Positions 1,025-62,516 are shown, counted from the first letter of the stretch. The stretch: 64,000 nt of DNA from an uncultured Actinomycetes bacterium (GCA_963704885.1 CAVPIB010000004.1:704001-768000), one strand, 5' to 3'. A program made the numbers and translations. Notes: generated from the letters alone by a model not told the origin.

Positions 1025-1375
1025 TCAAGCGGGAGCGTTCACCTTGAGCCCCTTCACGCGGGTGAAGTCAGCGGCGTTCCGCGTCAAGAGCCCGAGACCG
1101 TGTTCGAGGGCCGTGGCAGCTATCAAGGCATCGGGCGTGCGGACGTTGGTAGCCCGACGGATCCGACCGGCACGTTCGGCGATCGCTCGATCGACCGACA
1201 ACTCTGCGAACGGTGAAAGTAGCAGTCCGAGCGACTCTTCCTCGGCATCGCGACCGGCGAACAATTCGCACCGGGTAACGACCGAGTAGGACAGGCGATG
1301 CGAGCCCACCTTGATCGGAGACGCGCCACGTACATGGTCGACGAAGACGTCGGTGTCGACCAGTAGATCAGCCAT
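1025..1375 (-). CDS. vapC: PIN-domain toxin, VapC family
   Basis: MADLLVDTDVFVD...SVVTRCEL...TPDALIAATALEHGLGLLTRNAADF shows the PIN acidic residues. Start overlaps the antitoxin stop. Confidence 0.92.
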   Translation of the reverse strand: MADLLVDTDVFVDHVRGASPIKVGSHRLSYSVVTRCELFAGRDAEEESLGLLLSPFAELSVDRAIAERAGRIRRATNVRTPDALIAATALEHGLGLLTRNAADFTRVKGLKVNAPA

Positions 1376-1592
1376 CGCGATCCCATTCGTCCCTCGAAGG
1401 GACTCGGAAGTCGGGGGCGATCCCGAACGTGGCATCGAGCGCCACCCTCGGCTCAGGAGGCGCGCCGGCGAGGTAGGCGTCGATCGCTTCACGGACTATC
1501 TCCGCCAAAGATCGGTCCTCCTTTCGGGCGATCGCATCCAGCCGCTTGCGTTGTTCCACCGTCAGATACACCTGCGTCCTAGTCGATACCAT
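1368..1592 (-). CDS. vapB: Ribbon-helix-helix (CopG-like) antitoxin, VapB
   Basis: RTQVYLTVEQRKRLDAIARKEDRSLAEIVREAIDAYL fits the RHH pattern. Lies directly upstream of the PIN gene. Confidence 0.9.
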   Translation of the reverse strand: MVSTRTQVYLTVEQRKRLDAIARKEDRSLAEIVREAIDAYLAGAPPEPRVALDATFGIAPDFRVPSRDEWDRDG

Positions 1593-1611
1593 ATACAGCG
1601 CAGTATACAGC
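1592..1611 (-). promoter_or_regulatory. vapBC -10 box (TATACT) within a TATACAGC direct repeat; putative autoregulatory operator
   Basis: tatacagc at 1592-1599 and 1604-1611 (+ strand); TATACT on the - strand about 9 nt before the ATG. Confidence 0.5.
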
Positions 1612-1719
1612 ATCGCTCTCCGTCTATCACGACCCTACCCCGAAGGACCGACGCTGCTGCTCAGAGACGTGAGCGGCTCTGCCTGGCACCAGCTTCGACC
1701 AAGACCCATACTCCCGTCC

Positions 1720-4700
1720 ATGGACGGAGGTGGTCCCAAGGGCCGCGGCGACGTGGATGATGCGCGGCCACCCCCGGGCGAATCTGGCTCCAACGATGCT
1801 TCGATCAAGACCTTCCTGATCGTCGACGTTCGGGGATGGACCCTCTTCACACAAACGCATGGCGATGAAGCTGCCGCCAAGCTCGCGGCAAGGTTCGCCG
1901 AGGTGGTTCGCGAGGGCGTGCAACGCCGCGACGGGATCGTCCTGGAGCTTCGAGGCGACGAGGCGCTATGCGTGTTCTCCTCCGCACGACAGGCCATCCG
2001 TGCAGCCGTTGACCTCCAAGACCGACTCCTCGAGGAAACCGTCTCCAACCCCGACCTCCCCCTGCCCGCCGGCATCGGCCTGGATGCCGGGGAGGCGGTA
2101 GCGGTCGAGGGTGGCTATCGCGGTGGCGCGCTGAACCTGGCCGCTCGGCTCTGCGGGCAAGCGAAAGCCGGCGAGATCCTGGCATCGAGGGAGGTCGTGC
2201 ATCTGGCGAGGCACGTCGAGGGCGTTCGTTACCAAGAGCACGGAAGCCTCAGCCTGAAGGGACTCGCCGAGCCGGTCGCCGTGGTTCGCGTGATCTCGGA
2301 GACGCACGATCCCGCCGAGAAACTCGCCGCGTTCGCGCCGCCGCCGCCAACCTCTGAGCGGCCATCACGGCGGCGGCGGCGCACCATCCTCGTGGCCGCG
2401 GGCCTGACTATCGCACTGATCGCGGTCGGGATCCCTGTGGTCCGTTCGCTGTCGAAGGGCGACCCGATCGTGATCGAGACGAACTCGCTCGTCTCGATGG
2501 ACCAGGACGGACGGGTCGAGGCGTCGGTTCCGCTAGGCACCCGTCCCGGCGCGGTCGCCGCCGGAGCAGGTGCCGTGTGGGTCGCGAGCCCCGACGACGG
2601 CCGCGTAAGCCGGATCGACCCGGGTTCGGGGGCAGTGGTCGACACGATCAAGGTCGGCGTCGACCCGTCGGCGATCGCGGTCGGCGAGGGATCGGTCTGG
2701 GTCGCCAACGCGGGAGGGCCTAGCGTCTCGCGGATCAGCCCGGACACGAACGAGGTCGTGGAGACCATCGAGACCTGCAGCGGCCCGAACGCGATCGCCA
2801 CCGGGCTCAGCGCCGTCTGGGTCACCTGCGCCTTCGACTCCCTGGCGCTCAGGATCGACCCGGGAACCGGCGAGACGGTGCAGATCCGGCTCCCCGGGAC
2901 CCCTACCGGGGTGGCCGTCGCCGATGGAGCCCTGTGGGTGTCCATCACCACCTCGGCCACGGTGGTACGGGTCGACCCGGCAACCTTCGAGGTCGTGGGC
3001 GAGATCGAGGTGGGCAACGGTCCCGAGGCCATCGTGTCGACCTCCGGAGCGATCTGGGTGGCGAACCGGCTCGACGGCACGGTCGACCGACTCGACCCCG
3101 AGACCGGCACGAGGCGCGTCACGATCGAGGTCGGGCGCGACCCGAGCGCCCTCGCGGCGACCGAGGGCGCCGTTTGGGTCACGACAGCCTTCGAGGGGCG
3201 CGTCGTGAGCATCGACACAGGAACGAACCAGATCGATCGGGAAGTCGATATGGGGAAGACGACCGCGTCGATCGCCGTTACCGGCGAGCAGATCTGGGCG
3301 ACCGCTGGCGCCCCCGCCGGGGGTCATCGCGGTGGCACGCTACGGATCTCGATGCCCCTTGTCGATATCCTCGATCCGGGCTTCGCCTATGGTCCGGAGT
3401 GGCAGATCATCTCCCTCACGAACGATGGCCTCGTCGGATACCGACGCGTCGGAGGGATCGGCGGCACCACGCTCGTACCCGACCTCGCCCTGTCATTGCC
3501 GACCCCGACCGAGGACGGCTTGACGTACCGATTCCAGCTCCGTCCCGGCATCCGCTACTCGACCGGCGAGATCGTCGAACCGACCGATGTCCGATTCGCG
3601 ATCGAACGCGTGCTGGCATCCAGGTCGGACGGACGGCAGTTCTACCAGGCGATCTTGGGAGCCGACGGCTGCATCGTCGGCGGTGCATGCGACCTGTCCG
3701 ACGGGATCGTCGTGGATCCCACGGCCAACACGATTACGTTCCACCTGAGCGAGCCTGATCCCGAGTTCCTCTACGAGCTGGCGATGCCGTTCGCCTTCCC
3801 GGTGCCACCCGATACCCCGGAGGGCAACCAAGCGCTCGATCCCGTTCCCGCGACGGGCCCCTACATGATCACCAGCAGCAGCGGGGACGTCGTCGAGCTC
3901 GACCGGAACCCCGAGTTCCAAGCATGGAACTCCCCAGCCCGTCCGGATGGGTTCCCCGATCGGATCGTGATCGAGATCCTGGGTGACGGCGATGCCGCGA
4001 TCGAGCGGGTCCTCGACGGCTCCCTCGACTGGACGAACTCCGAGCCGTCTCCGGAGGTCCTCGATGAGCTCCTCACGCAGCGACCCGGCCAGATCCATCT
4101 CGCCCCGACCACCGCGATCTGGCACATGATCCTCAACACGACGGCACCGCCGTTCAACGACGTCCGGGTCCGTCAAGCGGTGAACCTCGGCATCGACCGC
4201 GACCGCATCGCCGCCATCTTCGGCGGGACCGGCCGATCCACGTGCCAGATCCTCACGCCGAACTTCCCCTCGTACGATCCGTACTGCCCGTTCACGCTCG
4301 ACCCTGGCCCCACTTGGAACGGACCCGATCTGGAGGGCGCTCGCGCGCTCATCTCGCGCGCCGGCGAGGTGGGACGAAAGGTCGAAGTGGCGGTCTGGAC
4401 CGGGCTCCCCGCTCCAGTGGAGGCTGTCGCCGACCACTTCGCCGGTCTGCTGCGCGATCTCGGACTGCGCGCGACTATCAAGGCTACGTCGGATCCGGGC
4501 GAGTTCTTCGCTCTGATCTCCCAGGGGAAGACACAGATGGCGCTGCTGGGGTGGTCACCGGACTACCCGGCCCCCGCCGGAGTGCTCCCTCCGGAGTTCC
4601 GCTGTGGCTTGAGCACCAACGTCTTCTTCTTCTGCGAGCCCGGGATCGACGAGGCTATGGATCAAGCGAGAGCACTGCAGGTGGAAGATCCGGCCGCCGC

Positions 4701-4860
4701 GACGGTCGCCTGGACGGACATCGAACACCGGATCGTCGACCTCGCCCCGCTCGTTCCGCTCGTCGTGCGTCTCGAGAGCGGCCTCGTGTCGGAAAGGACC
4801 GGCAACTACCAAAGCCATCCCCAGTGGGGGGCACTGCTGGATCAGCTCTGGGTCGTCTAG
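1720..4860 (+). CDS. Membrane receptor: class III nucleotide cyclase - TM - beta-propeller - ABC solute-binding family 5 domain
   Basis: Cyclase motifs FLIVDVRGWT, ELRGDEAL, GALNLAARL. RRRRR followed by a hydrophobic helix. Repeated P.A(V/I)A.G.G.VWV...G.V.RIDP blades. SBP5 motifs PDLA...DGLTYRFQLR, PATGPY, PFNDVRVRQA. CATACT 7 nt before ATG 1720 supports this start. Confidence 0.88.
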   Translation: MDGGGPKGRGDVDDARPPPGESGSNDASIKTFLIVDVRGWTLFTQTHGDEAAAKLAARFAEVVREGVQRRDGIVLELRGDEALCVFSSARQAIRAAVDLQDRLLEETVSNPDLPLPAGIGLDAGEAVAVEGGYRGGALNLAARLCGQAKAGEILASREVVHLARHVEGVRYQEHGSLSLKGLAEPVAVVRVISETHDPAEKLAAFAPPPPTSERPSRRRRRTILVAAGLTIALIAVGIPVVRSLSKGDPIVIETNSLVSMDQDGRVEASVPLGTRPGAVAAGAGAVWVASPDDGRVSRIDPGSGAVVDTIKVGVDPSAIAVGEGSVWVANAGGPSVSRISPDTNEVVETIETCSGPNAIATGLSAVWVTCAFDSLALRIDPGTGETVQIRLPGTPTGVAVADGALWVSITTSATVVRVDPATFEVVGEIEVGNGPEAIVSTSGAIWVANRLDGTVDRLDPETGTRRVTIEVGRDPSALAATEGAVWVTTAFEGRVVSIDTGTNQIDREVDMGKTTASIAVTGEQIWATAGAPAGGHRGGTLRISMPLVDILDPGFAYGPEWQIISLTNDGLVGYRRVGGIGGTTLVPDLALSLPTPTEDGLTYRFQLRPGIRYSTGEIVEPTDVRFAIERVLASRSDGRQFYQAILGADGCIVGGACDLSDGIVVDPTANTITFHLSEPDPEFLYELAMPFAFPVPPDTPEGNQALDPVPATGPYMITSSSGDVVELDRNPEFQAWNSPARPDGFPDRIVIEILGDGDAAIERVLDGSLDWTNSEPSPEVLDELLTQRPGQIHLAPTTAIWHMILNTTAPPFNDVRVRQAVNLGIDRDRIAAIFGGTGRSTCQILTPNFPSYDPYCPFTLDPGPTWNGPDLEGARALISRAGEVGRKVEVAVWTGLPAPVEAVADHFAGLLRDLGLRATIKATSDPGEFFALISQGKTQMALLGWSPDYPAPAGVLPPEFRCGLSTNVFFFCEPGIDEAMDQARALQVEDPAAATVAWTDIEHRIVDLAPLVPLVVRLESGLVSERTGNYQSHPQWGALLDQLWVV

Positions 4861-4883
4861 CGGGTGCCGACTACCATCGCGGT

Positions 4884-13357: not shown

Positions 13358-14547
13358 GTCGTGTACTCCCCGTTGATCCGCACGTACTCATAGGAGAGAT
13401 CGCACCCGAGCACCCGGCTACGGCCGGGGCCTTCCCCCACCGACACGTGGATCCGGATCTCGGGTTCCTTCATGGCGACACGCGCCGCCGAGGCGAGCGG
13501 ATCCTCTCCGAAATAGGCGGGTGGGATGACGCCGTTGGCCACCAGCCGATGTTCGCCTATCGCGATGTCGATCCGCGTGGGGTCGACGTCGACACCCGAA
13601 GAACCCACCGCTTGCAGGATGCGACCGGGGTTGGGATCGCCGCCGAACGCGGCGGTCTTGACCAGGGGTGAATCCGCGACCGCCTTGGCGATCACACGGG
13701 CATCCTGTTCCGTGCGCGCGCCTTCCACATCGATCAGCAGGACGTGGTTCACGCCCTCGGCGTCGGCCGCCAGCTGACGGAGCAGCGACTCCCCCACTTC
13801 GCCGATCGCACCGGCGAGCGCGTCCCAGTTGGCCGATGTCTGCGTGAGCGGCCCGTCGGCCCCCGCGCCGCTCGCGAAGACGAGCACGGTGTCGTTGGTG
13901 CTGGTACATGCATCGACCGTGAGCGCGTTGAAGCGAGGCTTGAGCTGTTCGTCCGCAAGGAGCTGAAGATCTCGTCTTCCGACCGCCGCGTCCGTCGTGA
14001 CGAATACGAGCATCGTGGCCAGGTTCGGCGCGATCATGCCGACGCCCTTGGCGCAGCCGCCCACCCGGAACGCTCCGGCATCCGCCGTGGCCTGCTTCTC
14101 CACGGTGTCGGTGGTCATGATCGCCCGCGCGAAGTCCGCACCGCCCTCGCTCGAGAGCGTCCCCGCGAGCGTGGGGATAGCGGGGAGCATGACGTCCAGG
14201 TGCAGCGGCTCGCCTATCACGCCGGTCGAACACGCCAGCATGTCTGCGGGATCCACCCCGAGCGCGGTCGCGGCGGCAGCCGCGACCGCGCGGGCGTCGG
14301 CATCGCCTCGTTCGCCGGTCGCCGCGTTCGCCTGTCCGCTGTTTACCACGACCGCGCGTCCGCGATCGGCGGACAACACCTCGCGGCAGTACCGCACCGG
14401 CGCCGCCGCGACCCTGTTCGTCGTGAACAACCCGGCGACCGTGGTTCCGGGATCGCCGATCAGGAGTCCCAGGTCGGGGCGTCCCGAGGGTTTGAGACCG
14501 GCGCTCATGCCGGCAGCGCGGAACCCGCGTGGATAGGTGACGCTCAC
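13354..14547 (-). CDS. argJ: Ornithine acetyltransferase
   Basis: NSGQANA, STGVIG, IMTTD, KGVGMIAPNLATML, STND, YVRING.YTT. Confidence 0.97.
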   Translation of the reverse strand: MSVTYPRGFRAAGMSAGLKPSGRPDLGLLIGDPGTTVAGLFTTNRVAAAPVRYCREVLSADRGRAVVVNSGQANAATGERGDADARAVAAAAATALGVDPADMLACSTGVIGEPLHLDVMLPAIPTLAGTLSSEGGADFARAIMTTDTVEKQATADAGAFRVGGCAKGVGMIAPNLATMLVFVTTDAAVGRRDLQLLADEQLKPRFNALTVDACTSTNDTVLVFASGAGADGPLTQTSANWDALAGAIGEVGESLLRQLAADAEGVNHVLLIDVEGARTEQDARVIAKAVADSPLVKTAAFGGDPNPGRILQAVGSSGVDVDPTRIDIAIGEHRLVANGVIPPAYFGEDPLASAARVAMKEPEIRIHVSVGEGPGRSRVLGCDLSYEYVRINGEYTT

Positions 14548-15604
14548 GGGTAGACCGCCACGGTCGGCAAAGCCGTTGACTCATCCAGGCCGAGCACCAG
14601 ATTCATGTTCTGGATCGCCTGCCCGGCCGCGCCCTTGATCAGGTTGTCCAGCGCCCCCACCACGACCGCCGACCCGCTTCGCGGGTCGGCTACCGCCTGC
14701 AGTTCGACCACGTTGGTGCCCCGGGTTCGCTTGGAGTCGACCATCTCACCCGGAGGCAGCACGCGAACGAACGAACGCCCGGCGTAGGCCCCGGCCAAGC
14801 ATGCCGTGAGCGCATCCGTGGTCACCCCGGCCGCGAGCGGCGCGTAGCAAGTGGTCACCACGCCGCGGACCGCCGGAACCAGATGGGGAACGAACAACAC
14901 CGGCGGGGTGAATCCCGTGGCCAGCTCAAGCCCTCGTTCCATCTCGGGTGTGTGCTGGTGGCGCGGCACCCTGTAGGGACGCACACTCTCCTCGCTCGGC
15001 GGTGTACAGGGTCGCGTCGCTCATCGACCGGCCCGCTCCGGACAGGCCGGTCTTTCCGTCGACGTGGATAGTGCCGGGCTCCACCAGACCGGCCGACAGG
15101 AGCGGCGCCAGTCCCAGGATGACGGGGGTCGGGAAACAGCCGGGGTTCGCCACCAGCTGCGCACCGGGAAGCTGTTCGGCGAAGAGCTCGGGAAGGCCGT
15201 AGATGGACTTGCCGAGCCAATCGAGTGCCTGATGCTCGAACCCGTACCAGTCCGGATAGGCCGAGGCCGGCAGACGGAAGTCCCCCGCCAGATCGATCAC
15301 GCGCAGGCCGGCTTCCAGCAGCGCCGGTGCAAGCTCCGAGCTCACGCCGTGCGGAAGGGAGCAGAAGGCGATGTCCGCCGCCTGGATCACGTCGGCCGCC
15401 TCGAGCCCTCCGATGATGGCGCTCCCGACCGGCAGCGAACCGAGGTGCGGATGCGCCTCGGCGAGCGACGACACCGGCCGCGGTGTGCGCCCCTAGGTAG
15501 GAGACACGGGCCGCGGGGTGTTCCGCCAGCAACCTGATCAGCTCACCGCCGGCGAACCCGGAGGCGCCGAGCACCGCTACCCGTAGCTGGGTGGACTCCG
15601 ACAT
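14544..15604 (-). CDS. argC: N-acetyl-gamma-glutamyl-phosphate reductase, two +1 frameshifts (~15474, ~14997)
   Basis: GASGFAGGELIR, ANPGCF, SGAGR, HQHTPE and DNLIKGAAGQAIQN are spread over three overlapping ORFs. Confidence 0.93.
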
Positions 15605-23978: not shown

Positions 23979-26900
23979 CTATCCGGTGAGCGCCGCGAGC
24001 TTCGCCCGGGCAGTGCCTGCCTGCAGCTCGTTGCCCTTGCCCTCGTAGAGCTGGATCGCTTCCTGGATCGCCGTGGCCGCCTCGTCGGGGCGGCCGGCGA
24101 GCTGCAGGACTTCGGCGAGCGCCATCCTGGCGTCGCCCCGCTCACTGGGGAAGTCGGTCGTGTCCATCTCAATGACAGCATCTCGAGCGATCCGCTCGGC
24201 ATCCTCGAAGAGACCACGGCGCGCGAGCACCATCGCCCGGACCGAGCTTTCCATCACGCGCGTCGACATGTCACGGAATCGCTCGGCGCCTCGATCAACG
24301 GCAACTTCGGCCTCGTCGTAGCGCCCCAGCTCGTACAGCGCCTGCGCGCGGATCGACCAGAGAACGCCGCCCACCTCCGACCCCATAGCCTCGAGCTCAA
24401 CCACCGCCACTTCGGCGAGGCGCTCGGCCTCTTCGAAATCGCCGGCGATGAGCTCCACCCACCCGATCATCTGCGTGGTGAAAGCGGCGGTCTCCCGACG
24501 CCCCAGCTCCCGGAGGAGCTTGTCGTATTCGTGGAAGATGGCCCGGGCTTCGTCGACGTTCCCTTGATAGGCCAGTATCCAAGCGATCGTCGCTTGCAGC
24601 TCCGATTCCGCCTCCACGGATCCGAGCACCTCGACCTCGTAGCCACGAAGCAGCCTGAGCGCTCCATCGCAATCCATCGGGCCGAGAAGGGGTATCCCGC
24701 AGAACCATCCGAAGCATTCCTCCGCCATGCGCCGGTCCCCGGCGCGTCGGAAATGATCCAGCGCTTCTCGCCAGGCGGGCTCTGCCTCATCCGATCGGCA
24801 GCGCTGCCACGCGCAACCGCCGATCACGTACCAAGCCCACGCCAGGCCCAGATCATCGTTAGCTGGCCCCGCGACATCAAGCAGCAGACGCGCGAGTCGC
24901 GCCTCCTCCTCCAGCCACAGAGGGTCGGTCATGACCACCCCTCTGTTGTGATGAACGAGGCGAGCGCGAGCTATGAGGACCTCCACACCCGTCCTCTCAG
25001 CCGTCTCGACCGCGTCCTCAAGGAGTGAAGTACCCACCGCTCGCCAACCCGCCTCGCGAGCCGCCAAGCCGGCGTCGATCAGAGCGTCGACCCGCGCCGG
25101 GTCGTCTGGCGACATCAGCTCGCCCGCCCGCTGCAGGAGGCCCGCAGCCGCCGACATGTCTCCGCGGTCGTAGGCGCGCCGGCCAGCCTCGCGTAGGTGC
25201 TTGGCAGCGCGCTCCGCCAGCGCGGACGCTCGGGCGTCCGCCGGACCAAGCTCTTCGAGCAGGCGGCTCGCTCGTTCGAGGTGGTACCCGGCGATCTCTT
25301 GTTGCTCCGCGATCCGGTCTCCGAGCGCTTCCTCAAGCCAGTCGGCGAACCGCACGTGGAGATCGGCCCGCAGTGCCTTCGGCACCTGGTCGTACGCGGC
25401 GTCTCGGATCAGGAGGTGCCGGAACGCAAGCGCCTCGACGCCCGGAAGATCCGAGCGTTCGGTCCTAACGAACTGCTTGCGCGCGAGCGACGAAAGCGCC
25501 GTTCGCGCCTGCGGCCCGTCGGGCCTAGATAGAGCCTCTACCGCGTCGGAGTAGAAGACGTGGCCGATGACGGAGGCACGTTCCAGGACGGCGCGTTCCG
25601 CAGGATCCAGCCGGTCGAGCCGAGCGGCGAGCAGGGCAGCGATCGTCGGCGGAACGACAACCTCCGCGAGGTCGGCTGCCGCGATCCACACACCGTCGTC
25701 TCGGACCAGGATCCCTTCCTCGACGAGCGTCGCGAGCATCTCCTCGGCGAACAGCGGGTGCCCTTCGGCTGCGGCCGCCACCCTTTCGCGCACGTCCGCA
25801 GCCACGTCGTCGACCGCAAGCAGGTTCGCGACCAAGGTCTCGCATTCCTCGGCCGTGAGGGGCTCCAGCGCGATCGCCGTAGCGTTCAGCTTTCCTCCCC
25901 CCCAGGCCGGCCGCTCCTCGAGCAGCTCTGGACGGGCCATGCACGCGAGTAGGATCGGCGCGTCTCGCGACCAGTCGGCGATGTACTCGATCAGCTCGAG
26001 CAGGGTCGGCTCGGCCCATTGGATGTCGTCGATCACGAACACGACCGGCCGGGTCGCGGCCATAGCCTCCAGGAGTCGCCGAACGGCCCAGAGCGTCTCC
26101 TCGGGCACAGCCTCGCCGCCAGCGCCGATGAGCTGCGTCATGCGATCGGCTATCCGGTCGCGGTCTTCATCCTCACCGAGCAGCTCGATCAACTTCCCAC
26201 GGATCTGGTCGGGACCGTCAGCGTCGGCGAGATCCGCTACATCTGCAACAGCCTCGACGATCGGCGAGAACGTGATGCCTTCGCCGTACGACAGGCAGCG
26301 ACCGCGGAGCACGGTCGCGCCATCCGCGAGATCGTCGACGAACGCCCCGATCAACCGCGACTTCCCGACCCCTCCCACGCCGAGCACGGTGAAGAGCTGG
26401 CACGCCCGGTCCGAGATCGCTCTGTCGAAGGCGCCGCGTAGCAGGCCGAGCTCCCTCGAACGCCCGACCATAGGCGCGTCGAGCCGCCGCACGAAGCCAG
26501 CCGCTCCGGGGATCAGGCGAAGGAGCCGAAACGCGGCGACGGGCTCAGACTTCCCCTTCAAGACGAGCGGATCCATCGGCTCGACGTCGACGGCATCTCG
26601 GACGAGGCGTAGGGTCGATCCGCCGATCAACACGTCGCCCGGCGACGCGACCTGCTCCAGGCGAGCGGCAACGTTCACGGGATCGCCCACTACGATGTGT
26701 TCGCTCGCTGCGCGGTTACCCACTATGACTTCTCCGGTGTTCACGCCGATCCGGATCTGCAGGGTCGCGCCGTAGTCTCGATCGAGCTCCTTGTTGAGGG
26801 TCGCGAGCGCCTCGCGCATGTCTTGGGCGGCTCGCACGGCCCGTAGGGCATCGTCTTCGTGCACGTGAGGCACGCCGAAAACGGCCATCACCGCGTCGCC

Positions 26901-27161
26901 GATGAACTTCTCGACAGCACCGCCGTGCGCCTCGATCGGCTCGCGCATCGCCTCGGAGTATCGGGAGACGACTCGGCGGAACGTCTCGGGATCCAACCGC
27001 TCGCCAAGCGCGGTCGATCCGGTCAGGTCGCAGAACAGGATCGTGACCGTCTTGCGGCTCTCGCGGGGCTCCCCCTCATCGACGCGCAGATCGGTGGCGC
27101 ACGCGTTACAGAACCGCGCGCCCACGGGATTCTCAGCTCCGCAGGTGGAACAGACCAGCAT
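23979..27161 (-). CDS. Zinc ribbon + class III adenylate cyclase + STAND/AAA ATPase + TPR protein
   Basis: CSTC..CNAC; LFCDLTGST, EKFIGD, VNVAARL; GVGGVGKS; VIDDIQWAE; FRHLLIRDAAY; helical repeats. Confidence 0.92.
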   Translation of the reverse strand: MLVCSTCGAENPVGARFCNACATDLRVDEGEPRESRKTVTILFCDLTGSTALGERLDPETFRRVVSRYSEAMREPIEAHGGAVEKFIGDAVMAVFGVPHVHEDDALRAVRAAQDMREALATLNKELDRDYGATLQIRIGVNTGEVIVGNRAASEHIVVGDPVNVAARLEQVASPGDVLIGGSTLRLVRDAVDVEPMDPLVLKGKSEPVAAFRLLRLIPGAAGFVRRLDAPMVGRSRELGLLRGAFDRAISDRACQLFTVLGVGGVGKSRLIGAFVDDLADGATVLRGRCLSYGEGITFSPIVEAVADVADLADADGPDQIRGKLIELLGEDEDRDRIADRMTQLIGAGGEAVPEETLWAVRRLLEAMAATRPVVFVIDDIQWAEPTLLELIEYIADWSRDAPILLACMARPELLEERPAWGGGKLNATAIALEPLTAEECETLVANLLAVDDVAADVRERVAAAAEGHPLFAEEMLATLVEEGILVRDDGVWIAAADLAEVVVPPTIAALLAARLDRLDPAERAVLERASVIGHVFYSDAVEALSRPDGPQARTALSSLARKQFVRTERSDLPGVEALAFRHLLIRDAAYDQVPKALRADLHVRFADWLEEALGDRIAEQQEIAGYHLERASRLLEELGPADARASALAERAAKHLREAGRRAYDRGDMSAAAGLLQRAGELMSPDDPARVDALIDAGLAAREAGWRAVGTSLLEDAVETAERTGVEVLIARARLVHHNRGVVMTDPLWLEEEARLARLLLDVAGPANDDLGLAWAWYVIGGCAWQRCRSDEAEPAWREALDHFRRAGDRRMAEECFGWFCGIPLLGPMDCDGALRLLRGYEVEVLGSVEAESELQATIAWILAYQGNVDEARAIFHEYDKLLRELGRRETAAFTTQMIGWVELIAGDFEEAERLAEVAVVELEAMGSEVGGVLWSIRAQALYELGRYDEAEVAVDRGAERFRDMSTRVMESSVRAMVLARRGLFEDAERIARDAVIEMDTTDFPSERGDARMALAEVLQLAGRPDEAATAIQEAIQLYEGKGNELQAGTARAKLAALTG

Positions 27162-61550: not shown

Positions 61551-62516
61551 TCAGTCGATACGGCGGTCGATCGCCCACGAGGATCCGGCGGTCGACTTGG
61601 TGAAGGTCTTCATCTCGGTCGCTATCGCTACGGCCTCGGCGTAGTGCGCGAAGGATCGATGTTGTGTGGTGGCGATGCCGATCGAGATCGAGAGCATCGG
61701 GAAACGCTGGAGCTCACCGCGACGGTTGGCCACCTCGACGTAACCCCGCTCGCGGTCCTCCGGGTCGTAGAGCGTCGGTATCTCGGCGTCGAAGCGCGCG
61801 ACGATGCCCTCTGCGACATCGGTCGCCTTGTCCGGCGAGACGATCAGTACGAAGTCGTCGCCACCCACATGCCCGACGAAGGCCTCTGCGGCGGTCACCT
61901 CTCGTGAGACCTCCTCCAGCAACGTCGACGTCGCCTGGATGACCTGATCGCCGCGCATGAAGCCGTAGTGATCGTTGTAGGCCTTGAAGTGGTCGAGATC
62001 GGCGTACAGCAGTGCGAATTCCCGCCCGCTCTCAACCAGCTGATCGATCTCCTCTTCGATCCGAACGTTGCCCGGGAGCCCCGTGAGCGGAGACTGCGCT
62101 CGCATCTCTCGGGCCCGGCGCAAGACGCCGCGGATCCGGGCGAGCAGCTCCGGAGTGTCGAACGGCTTCACGATGTAGTCGTCCGCACCGATCGCGAACC
62201 CCTCCAGCTTGTCGGCGGAGAGGCCGCGTGCCGTGAGCATGATGATCGACACGGTAGCCGTGCGTGGGTCCTGGCGCAGACGGCGGGTCAGTTCGAACCC
62301 GTCCATGTTCGGCATCATGACGTCGGCCAGGACGAGATCGGGGCTGCGCTCCTGGGCGAGCTCCAAGGCCTGGTTGCCGTCACTCGCGACGCGCACATCG
62401 TAGCCGGCCGCCCGCAACTCGATCTCGAGCAGACGCGCGATGAACGGGTCGTCGTCGGCTACCAGCAGGCTCTCGCCGCCCGCAGCCTCGGACTGGTCGA
62501 TCTGTTGGTCGCTCAC
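61551..62516 (-). CDS. Response regulator diguanylate cyclase (REC-GGDEF, GGDDF variant)
   Basis: LVADDD, DVMMP, DDYIVKPF; SPLTGLPGN, DLDHFK.YND.YG..GD, HVGGDDF. Confidence 0.92.
   Translation of the reverse strand: MSDQQIDQSEAAGGESLLVADDDPFIARLLEIELRAAGYDVRVASDGNQALELAQERSPDLVLADVMMPNMDGFELTRRLRQDPRTATVSIIMLTARGLSADKLEGFAIGADDYIVKPFDTPELLARIRGVLRRAREMRAQSPLTGLPGNVRIEEEIDQLVESGREFALLYADLDHFKAYNDHYGFMRGDQVIQATSTLLEEVSREVTAAEAFVGHVGGDDFVLIVSPDKATDVAEGIVARFDAEIPTLYDPEDRERGYVEVANRRGELQRFPMLSISIGIATTQHRSFAHYAEAVAIATEMKTFTKSTAGSSWAIDRRID

Follow-up and report, generated by a model that had tools for sequence, protein, structure and literature searches.

Receptor cyclases and the locus analyzed

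The natriuretic-peptide receptor guanylate cyclases of animals and the receptor adenylate cyclases of trypanosomatids are built on a common plan, with a flytrap ectodomain, one transmembrane (TM) segment, and a cyclase that depends on dimerization (PMC6027212). In bacteria, cGMP signaling is established in only a few cases, among them Cya2 of Synechocystis, GcyB/GcyC-CgrA of Rhodospirillum centenum, and Clr of Sinorhizobium (PMC4215837 and PMC10187061), and a literature search in which subscription journals were not covered found no characterized cGMP signaling or guanylate cyclase in Actinomycetota. A 2021 review of signaling by solute-binding proteins (SBPs) treats, in its accessible parts, SBP-stimulated chemoreceptors, sensor kinases, GGDEF/EAL enzymes, and Ser/Thr kinases, with no mononucleotide cyclases among them (PMC8050422). 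Here we analyze a gene from a 64,000-nucleotide stretch of DNA (the window) of an uncultured Actinomycetes bacterium (GCA_963704885.1 CAVPIB010000004.1:704001-768000), whose product joins a cyclase-homology domain (CHD) of class III to a TM helix, a β-propeller, and a family-5 SBP domain. The CHD has Glu and Gly at the two base-selecting positions, as do nearly all members of a clade of such domains described below, and the protein is a good candidate for the first actinobacterial guanylate cyclase. We assign a probability of about 0.5 to the reading that it is a class III nucleotidyl cyclase receptor with a GTP-type pocket, switched by ligand-driven proximity and producing cGMP. A covalent SBP-cyclase receptor of this kind would add a further output class to the SBP-stimulated receptors, and the gene provides a compact, directly testable guanylate cyclase candidate belonging to a large clade. 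The gene and the features of its cyclase part are as follows.

1720..4860, plus strand: receptor gene, CHD - Arg5 - TM - seven-blade propeller - family-5 SBP (1046 aa plus stop; identical database protein P0002)
1801..2304, plus strand: CHD, Glu/Gly clade member, residues ~28-195 (Ma1120 match, AlphaFold2 [AF2] model, Foldseek)
1825..1827, plus strand: D36 of IVD, first metal-binding Asp (118/120 homologs; both exceptions N-terminally truncated)
1945..1959, plus strand: E76-L-R-G-D80, base-selecting Lys position and second metal Asp (E76 and D80 each in 118/120)
2113..2121, plus strand: G132-Y133-R134, second base-selecting position and clade-specific Tyr-Arg (G in 119/120, Y in 117/120, R in 119/120)
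2134..2148, plus strand: N139-L-A-A-R143, transition-state Asn/Arg pair (N139 and R143 each in 119/120), with A142 at the Cya2 Tyr position

The order of parts in the window protein is inverted relative to the animal natriuretic-peptide receptors, with the cyclase at the N terminus and the sensor at the C terminus. Whereas the animal proteins sense through an N-terminal LivBP-type flytrap, the window protein has a family-5/cluster C SBP together with a propeller, and their kinase-homology domain and signaling helix were not detected in it. The preliminary description of this DNA had called the protein an inverted analogue of the animal receptor guanylate cyclases; the shared logic stands, but the protein is not a member of that group. 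The mycobacterial PknD-type kinases likewise have a catalytic domain in an N-in arrangement, a single TM segment, and an extracellular propeller, but the window protein has a cyclase output and carries an SBP after the propeller. A third parallel is offered by the STAND-linked cyclases typified by Rv0386 (cyclase - AAA_16 - TPR - LuxR): members of the Glu/Gly clade also occur as N-terminal CHDs ahead of AAA_16/TPR/GerE or nSTAND1/WD40 modules. In contrast to these, the receptor has a TM ectodomain in place of the NTPase-repeat sensor. The base-selecting residues of Rv0386 are Q/N, whereas the first selector is K in the STAND-linked cyclase of the window and Glu in the receptor.

The N-terminal domain is a divergent class III CHD

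Searches of the PDB with phmmer recovered Ma1120 of Mycobacterium avium as the best solved relative (E 1.1e-14, query residues 31-192), followed by 3mr7, Rv1900c, CyaB, Cya2, and Rv1264. The AF2 model of residues 25-207 (pLDDT 96.8) gave 193 PDB matches in Foldseek at E<=0.001, and all of the top matches listed are class III cyclases. The catalytic-domain chains of Ma1120 align with TMq values of 0.81-0.86 and TMt values of 0.93-0.95, Cya2 ranks 13th, and the matches listed include soluble guanylate cyclase as well. Along with this fold, the domain has the full class III residue set, comprising the two Asp residues, the Asn...Arg pair, and the phosphate-binding lysine (K180, in an LKG motif), which is nearly invariant in homologs. 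On the basis of fold and residues, the Glu/Gly clade is a divergent branch of class III that the Pfam model misses. Two other assignments were tried and rejected: a GGDEF reading of the "RGDEA" motif (Pfam GGDEF E 0.12 and solved GGDEF domains E of at least 0.13, versus 1e-14 for CHDs) and the DUF2652 "hidden cyclases" described in PMC4886424, a separate family with no Pfam match in the CHD at E values up to 10.

Conservation was assessed in a word-indexed protein search in which 8000 candidates were scored, 5977 proteins matched at E<=0.001, and the best 120 were listed. When 112 distant full-length homologs are compared, the CHD has a median identity of 73%, as opposed to 45% for the propeller and 46% for the SBP, and is thus under far stronger constraint than the rest of the protein. 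This constraint, together with the complete catalytic set, makes it likely that the CHD is an active cyclase. A predicted CHD homodimer with GTP and Mg had a score of 0.08 and a mark of 0.42, which carries no weight either way.

Base-selecting residues and predicted product

Residue correspondence was taken from the HMMER alignment to wild-type Ma1120 and its KDA-to-EGY mutant. In this alignment E76 matches K101, G132 matches D157, N139 matches A164, A142 matches A167, and R143 matches R168, with G132 seven residues before N139. K101 and D157 are the base-selecting residues of Ma1120 (PMC4215837), and Cya2 carries the E-G pair at the same positions (PMC4215837 and PMC4886424). The predicted product is cGMP because Glu76 and Gly132 stand where adenylate cyclases have Lys and Asp; we put the preference of the CHD for GTP at close to even odds. 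Several statements of the preliminary description are borne out, namely, the class III catalytic set (IVD, GD, and NLAAR; here D36, D80, N139, and R143), the Glu of E-L-R-G-D and the Gly seven residues before the Asn as base-selecting residues, the statement that Cya2 is a Glu/Gly enzyme, and the Lys (K-F-I-G-D) of the other cyclase in the window.

Ma1120 (PDB 4wp9) is the closest solved relative by both sequence and fold, and its KDA-to-EGY mutant (5d0g/5d0h) has E and G at the positions aligned to E76 and G132. Natural Ma1120 differs from the window protein in having K/D as selectors and in lacking the transition-state Asn (Ala164), which the window protein possesses. The crystallized construct is a catalytic domain of 162-210 residues, and the accessible part of the source describes no ectodomain. 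Cya2 (Synechocystis PCC 6803, PDB 2w01; Foldseek E 2.7e-13) shares the Glu/Gly pair and the D, D, N, R set, but is only 24% identical over the structural alignment and has a Tyr where the window protein has Ala. The window clade further differs by the Y133-R134 dipeptide after the Gly, and no comparable ectodomain is described in the accessible portions of the cited Cya2 literature. Among the residues that mark guanylate cyclases, therefore, the window protein has the Glu and the Gly selectors and lacks the accessory ones (the Cya2 Tyr and the Arg of the animal triad).

The Glu/Gly clade across Actinomycetota

When the CHD alone (residues 25-207) was searched against a representative library of 1.84 billion proteins, 31,860 matches were found at E<=1e-3 and 4,724 at <=1e-10, and 744 representative clusters lay at <=1e-30. 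In the top 150 clusters, the motif E-x-x-G-D-[EG]-[AV] is present in 146, G-[YFWL]-R-G-x3-N-x-A-[AS]-R also in 146, and both in 143. A TM-like segment lies 30-130 residues past the CHD in 75 of these clusters and is absent from 73, while the anchor motif is missing in 2. Pfam was run on 43 of the 150, picked for lengths other than ~1050 aa, so that the proportions are not representative: 7 have a propeller with SBP_bac_5, 4 have a propeller only, 5 have a Ser/Thr kinase domain, and in 26 the partner is a STAND-type NTPase (nSTAND1, AAA_16, AAA_22, or NB-ARC), which is usually accompanied by WD40 or TPR repeats and in some cases by BTAD, Trans_reg_C, HTH_31, or GerE. In none of the 43 did PF00211 match the Glu/Gly domain at 1e-6. 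Most members of the clade carry the annotation "ABC transporter substrate-binding protein" or "YVTN propeller protein." Since the clade escapes the standard Pfam cyclase model, cyclase censuses and annotations probably undercount it.

Because 146 of the 150 clusters carry the motif whatever the partner domain, the Glu/Gly signature marks a CHD clade of uncultured Actinomycetota and not the receptor architecture. Thus, the covariation of ELRGD/GGYRG with the ectodomain that had been considered in the preliminary description is not seen, and the same ectodomain also occurs behind another type of CHD. Of 301 genomes sampled from the phylum, 19 have members of the clade (E<=1e-30), including the genome of the window and one flagged as unpublished (G088); leaving these two out gives 17 of 299. 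No member was found in the rest of the genomes searched. The matches are concentrated in the family of the window's bacterium (8 of 16 other genomes) and a few other families. No description of the Glu/Gly clade or of an SBP-cyclase fusion was found in the literature search, with the coverage noted above. That the whole clade consists of genuine guanylate cyclases is a tentative proposal, to which we give somewhat less than even odds. If true, these lineages of soil and sediment would use cGMP as a major second messenger that has so far gone unrecognized, and a proximity-activated module would have been plugged onto transmembrane SBP/propeller receptors, cytoplasmic STAND NTPases, and Ser/Thr kinases.

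In the genome of the window, only 2 of 19 cyclase-like domains have the Glu/Gly pair, the first selector being K, D, or S in the others. The second is in a 1570-aa paralog (L043:1948-6660 = G000:C4:34947-39659, plus strand) with the architecture Trans_reg_C + BTAD + Pkinase + Glu/Gly CHD + SBP_bac_5, so that DNA-binding, kinase, cyclase, and extracytoplasmic binding-protein modules all lie on a single chain; its CHD motifs are FMIADVRGYT, ELRGDEA, and GGYRGGALNLAAR. A scan of genome contigs yielded only 3 related loci, of which the L003 copy is broken into several open reading frames (ORFs) and was left out. In locus L002, from a metagenome-assembled genome (MAG) of an uncultured Actinomycetota, a receptor 36% identical to that of the window has the same TM-propeller-SBP ectodomain behind a CHD of a different type (M-D-T-A-G-D-G-F-F). 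Only ~3 kb from this D-type receptor, L002:10602-15395 encodes a protein with a Glu/Gly CHD, a propeller, SBP_bac_5, and a C-terminal propeller (DUF5074/DUF6923, residues 1345-1548); hence, ectodomains of one kind are found with both CHD types within a single neighborhood.

Membrane topology and ectodomain

The features downstream of the CHD are as follows.

2305..2382, plus strand: short Pro-rich linker ending in RRRRR (residues 217-221); 39% column identity over residues 196-219
2383..2442, plus strand: single TM helix, residues 222-241 (Kyte-Doolittle windows; AF2 helix at residues 226-244)
2485..3309, plus strand: seven-bladed YVTN/PknD-like β-propeller, residues 256-530 (28 AF2 strands; 1l0q, Pizza, and Pfam matches)
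3331..4857, plus strand: family-5 (cluster C, Opp/Dpp-like) SBP domain, residues 538-1046 (PF00496; six invariant Cys)

The top Kyte-Doolittle windows all fall at approximately residues 220-245, with a maximum of 2.65 at residue 223, and the next-highest value elsewhere is 1.60. Column identity in the linker and TM segment is 36-39% among the 112 distant homologs, AF2 pLDDT drops below 50 for residues 212-230, and no HAMP domain, coiled coil, or signaling helix was detected in the Pfam scan of the receptor. In the SBP part, Cys651/657, Cys842/856, and Cys962/972 are invariant across 118 homologs, and these six residues probably form three disulfides. The Arg5-TM arrangement and the putative disulfides together support an extracytoplasmic location of the ectodomain.

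The full-length AF2 model, built from 77 aligned sequences, has a mean pLDDT of 90.2. In it, 28 strands at residues 256-530 form seven four-stranded blades, followed by a two-lobed and confidently folded SBP. Several Pfam β-propeller families match over residues 254-528, and in the PDB this region matches 1l0q (4.6e-16), a YVTN propeller from a surface layer, and the "Pizza" designer propellers, which we take to have been derived from the sensor domain of PknD. SBP_bac_5 (PF00496) matches residues 584-960 with an E value of 2.5e-58 (198 bits, profile positions 1-361 of 368). The solved proteins closest to the domain are peptide binders, with 8upi first (2.5e-38, aligning to its residues 24-498), followed by Streptomyces clavuligerus OppA2 (2wok; 4.7e-32), OppA (2.4e-23), DppA (5e-19), and MppA and HbpA (~1e-16). 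NikA matches at only 4.6e-10 or weaker. This match to the family profile and to solved members over its full length places the domain in family 5. Furthermore, D948, in a GWSPDY motif, falls in the alignment on the Asp of GWCADY in OppA and of GWTGDN in DppA, which presumably binds the α-amino group of the peptide.

The SBP is not encoded with components of an ABC transporter, as no ABC permease or ABC ATPase domains were found among the 60 window ORFs scanned. Elsewhere in the genome, there are only four oligo_HPY (Opp/Dpp-type ATPase) matches, at C4:218830-220082 and C1:418850-420048, hundreds of kilobases from the receptor gene (at ~C4:705720), and each of these two ATPase pairs adjoins an ordinary SBP_5 gene of its own (C4:215473 and C1:423130). 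SBP_bac_5 itself has seven matches in the genome, three in long receptor-type proteins and four in ordinary-length frames (~620-640 aa), two of the latter being those next to the ATPase pairs, the only ones of the Opp/Dpp type in the genome. The preliminary description had listed a 1046-aa ORF with every one of these parts, including an RRRRR stretch before a single TM segment that would place the N terminus in the cytoplasm, about seven blades, a complete family-5 domain, and no adjacent ABC genes. All were recovered here, the cytoplasmic N terminus being supported by the Arg5 run and the sole strong hydrophobic segment.

Reality of the fusion

Homologs and metagenome contigs agree in showing that the fusion is real. 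Of the 120 homologs listed, 118 are full length (1000-1120 aa, 97-100% query coverage, and 47-85% identity) and have the whole architecture; most come from metagenomes, and the named ones are labeled "MAG: ... [Actinomycetota bacterium]." Logan contigs from four metagenome runs of four studies (at least 85% likeness), used solely for bridging of junctions, span 1796-2864 (CHD-TM-propeller), 2268-3240 (TM-propeller), and 2751-4862 (propeller-SBP-stop). As contigs from independent runs bridge the domain junctions, assembly chimerism is excluded. In the search of sequencing runs, DNA shares were 0.13 or less, and there was no RNA run among those listed.

Proposed mechanism

In class III cyclases, the active sites arise only where two chains meet in a dimer, and STAND NTPases oligomerize upon activation. 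We propose that the protein is a single-pass, N-in receptor in which the external propeller would carry an Opp/Dpp-like SBP that captures a small ligand, the likeliest candidate being a peptide with a free amino terminus. Inside, the CHD would be tethered through a short, flexible, and poorly conserved linker, and the ligand would probably alter how closely two receptor chains approach each other or how they pair, such that the CHD dimer assembles or disassembles. Proximity is favored over a piston motion because the protein has no rigid signaling helix, and the floppy linker, together with the occurrence of the same CHD clade N terminal to oligomerizing STAND NTPases, suggests that switching is probably by ligand-driven proximity of the CHDs. 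The presence of the clade on both TM receptors and STAND NTPases hints at a general design of activation through the proximity of two copies, which could be useful for engineering.

The product would be cGMP, perhaps with some cAMP, and the signal might be read by the many proteins of this genome with cyclic mononucleotide (cNMP)-binding domains. There are 24 PF00027 matches above the cut-off in the 3.0-Mb genome, with the assembly having an estimated contamination of 4.5% and some of the matches lying on seemingly duplicated small contigs. Their phosphate-binding cassette is R-T-A in 12 and R-S-A in 5. The cGMP-activated CRP CgrA has RT where CAP has RS (PMC10187061), and the R-T-A cassettes may accordingly be viewed as permissive for the reading of cGMP and not as diagnostic of it. 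Near-identical cNMP-binding domains (GE[IV]ALYTG[IV]PRTADV) recur on the small contigs C7, C15, and C17 of the genome and may represent a multicopy family or redundant contigs.

Points against the proposal and alternative readings

A series of observations weighs against the proposed receptor guanylate cyclase. The CHD falls short of the gathering score of PF00211, with 13.6 bits where 21.9 are required (E 0.052). Position 130, which we take to be the site of the Arg in the animal E-R-C triad, is E, Q, or H in homologs and never matches that Arg, and A142 (Ala in 119 of 120 homologs) occupies the place of the specificity-enhancing Tyr of Cya2. The pocket is also atypical in having Y133-R134 in place of the usual hydrophobic pair and a Gly for the canonical strand Arg ("aGiGlD" versus "vRiGiH" in Ma1120), so the substrate could be other than GTP. 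The position of Ma1120 A167 is that of the Cya2 Tyr that raises guanylate cyclase activity, and although the K101E/D157G double mutant had the highest such activity among the Ma1120 mutants, its kcat/Km (x10^6) was 1.92 for ATP and 0.29 for GTP, with parity between the two requiring A167Y as well (PMC4215837). By analogy with these mutants, Glu/Gly alone would be insufficient for GTP preference, and no enzymology of any member of the clade was found in the searchable literature. Hence, the one-component cGMP receptor of the preliminary description holds as to architecture, catalytic set, and Glu/Gly pair, but not as to a GTP preference following from that pair. On the side of the ligand, D948 is kept in only 96 of 118 homologs, and family-5 SBPs are also known to bind nickel, heme/glutathione, AI-2, and chitin or cello-oligosaccharides (PMC8050422). 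The term "peptide-sensing" used earlier therefore stands insofar as the closest solved relatives bind peptides, which speaks at the level of the family; a peptide is our best guess for the ligand, but a doubtful one. Finally, the neighboring genes offer no functional clue.

Among the alternatives, the one that survives best retains the receptor and its proximity mechanism but makes the CHD an adenylate cyclase or a promiscuous enzyme, with Glu/Gly as an idiosyncrasy of the clade. The established chemistry of base recognition speaks against this, as the carboxylate of Glu is no substitute for the Lys that donates a hydrogen bond to N1 of adenine, and the Glu found in 146 of the 150 representative clusters points to selection on base contacts. 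The naturally occurring Glu-position cyclases characterized in the accessible parts of the cited work (Cya2 and CYG12) are guanylate cyclases, but engineered Ma1120 with E/G kept its adenylate cyclase activity, and the fact that K101E/D157G still prefers ATP (PMC4215837) speaks in favor of this alternative. It also draws on the absence of the Cya2 Tyr, the adenylate cyclase activity of the closest solved relatives (Ma1120, Rv1900c, Rv1264, and CyaB), and a genome already rich in K-type cyclases and cNMP-binding domains. Overall, we consider it unlikely, though it has to be reckoned with.

A second alternative takes at face value the public names of these proteins, "ABC transporter substrate-binding protein" and "peptide/nickel transport system substrate-binding protein," and sees in the receptor a membrane-tethered SBP that feeds an Opp/Dpp-type importer encoded elsewhere, with the CHD as an inactive, dimerization, or regulatory appendage. 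The SBP domain is indeed complete, and the genome has two Opp/Dpp-type ATPase pairs, but both pairs already have an adjoining ordinary SBP_5 gene. Moreover, conservation within the protein is highest in the CHD, and its catalytic residues are invariant, which is unexpected for a decayed appendage, and the same type of ectodomain is joined to other signaling outputs, including that of the kinase-containing 1570-aa paralog, making this alternative improbable.

Least probable of all is another product, e.g., a pyrimidine cyclic nucleotide, which would fit the fusion of the clade to STAND NTPases of the conflict-system type (26 of the 43 members scanned), the atypical pocket (Y133-R134 and the lost canonical strand Arg), and weak matches to Pycsar PycC models (best 1.2e-9), but these matches are generic (4.9e-22 for the K-type cyclase of the window), no Pycsar-type effector gene lies beside the receptor gene, and Glu is the classical guanine selector. 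A Pycsar assignment with PADLOC was likewise rejected, with a best PycC score of 36 bits against 76.5 for the canonical cyclase of the window and no effector nearby.

Gene start, neighborhood, and other observations

The open frame of the receptor gene spans 1546-4860 on the plus strand, with a TTG at 1546 as an alternative start. ATG 1720 is a plausible start and is preferred because the frame from TTG 1546 would overlap an 81-aa ORF on the minus strand (1368-1613). This ORF lies directly upstream of a gene for a PIN domain (1025-1492, minus strand; E 6.4e-13), and the two (1025-1613, minus strand) are probably a VapBC-like toxin-antitoxin pair with the 81-aa ORF as the antitoxin partner. The pair is divergent from the receptor gene and separated from it by ~106 bp. 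The other window neighbors of the receptor gene are an unknown ORF and an ATP-dependent ligase, whereas in L002 the neighbors comprise a transposase, a further cyclase, and a further SBP receptor; the two sets have nothing informative in common.

The second cyclase of the window is as follows.

23979-27161, minus strand: 1060-aa protein with a Zn ribbon, a PF00211 CHD (82.5 bits, K-F-I-G-D), AAA_16, and TPR

A similar architecture of a double zinc ribbon, PF00211, and AAA_16 is encoded beside the receptor homolog in L002 (7677-11234). Signaling by c-di-GMP is also encoded in the window, where a response regulator with a GGDEF domain is found at 61551-62516 (minus strand).

Outside the window, a third receptor with a TM segment, a propeller, and SBP_bac_5 is present at G000:C1:604485-607649 (minus strand). 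Its N-terminal CHD belongs to another type (LDTAGDGFF ... GKLGGLAVVVGAR) and is divided over two frames, reflecting either a frameshifted pseudogene or an assembly error. Within the window, the argC-like gene of an arg cluster is split into two overlapping ORFs on the minus strand, of which 14926-15474 encodes the NAD-binding domain and the start of the dimerization domain, and 14544-14984 encodes the remainder. This suggests an assembly frameshift or a broken gene and therefore calls for caution in taking frameshifts in this genome as biology.

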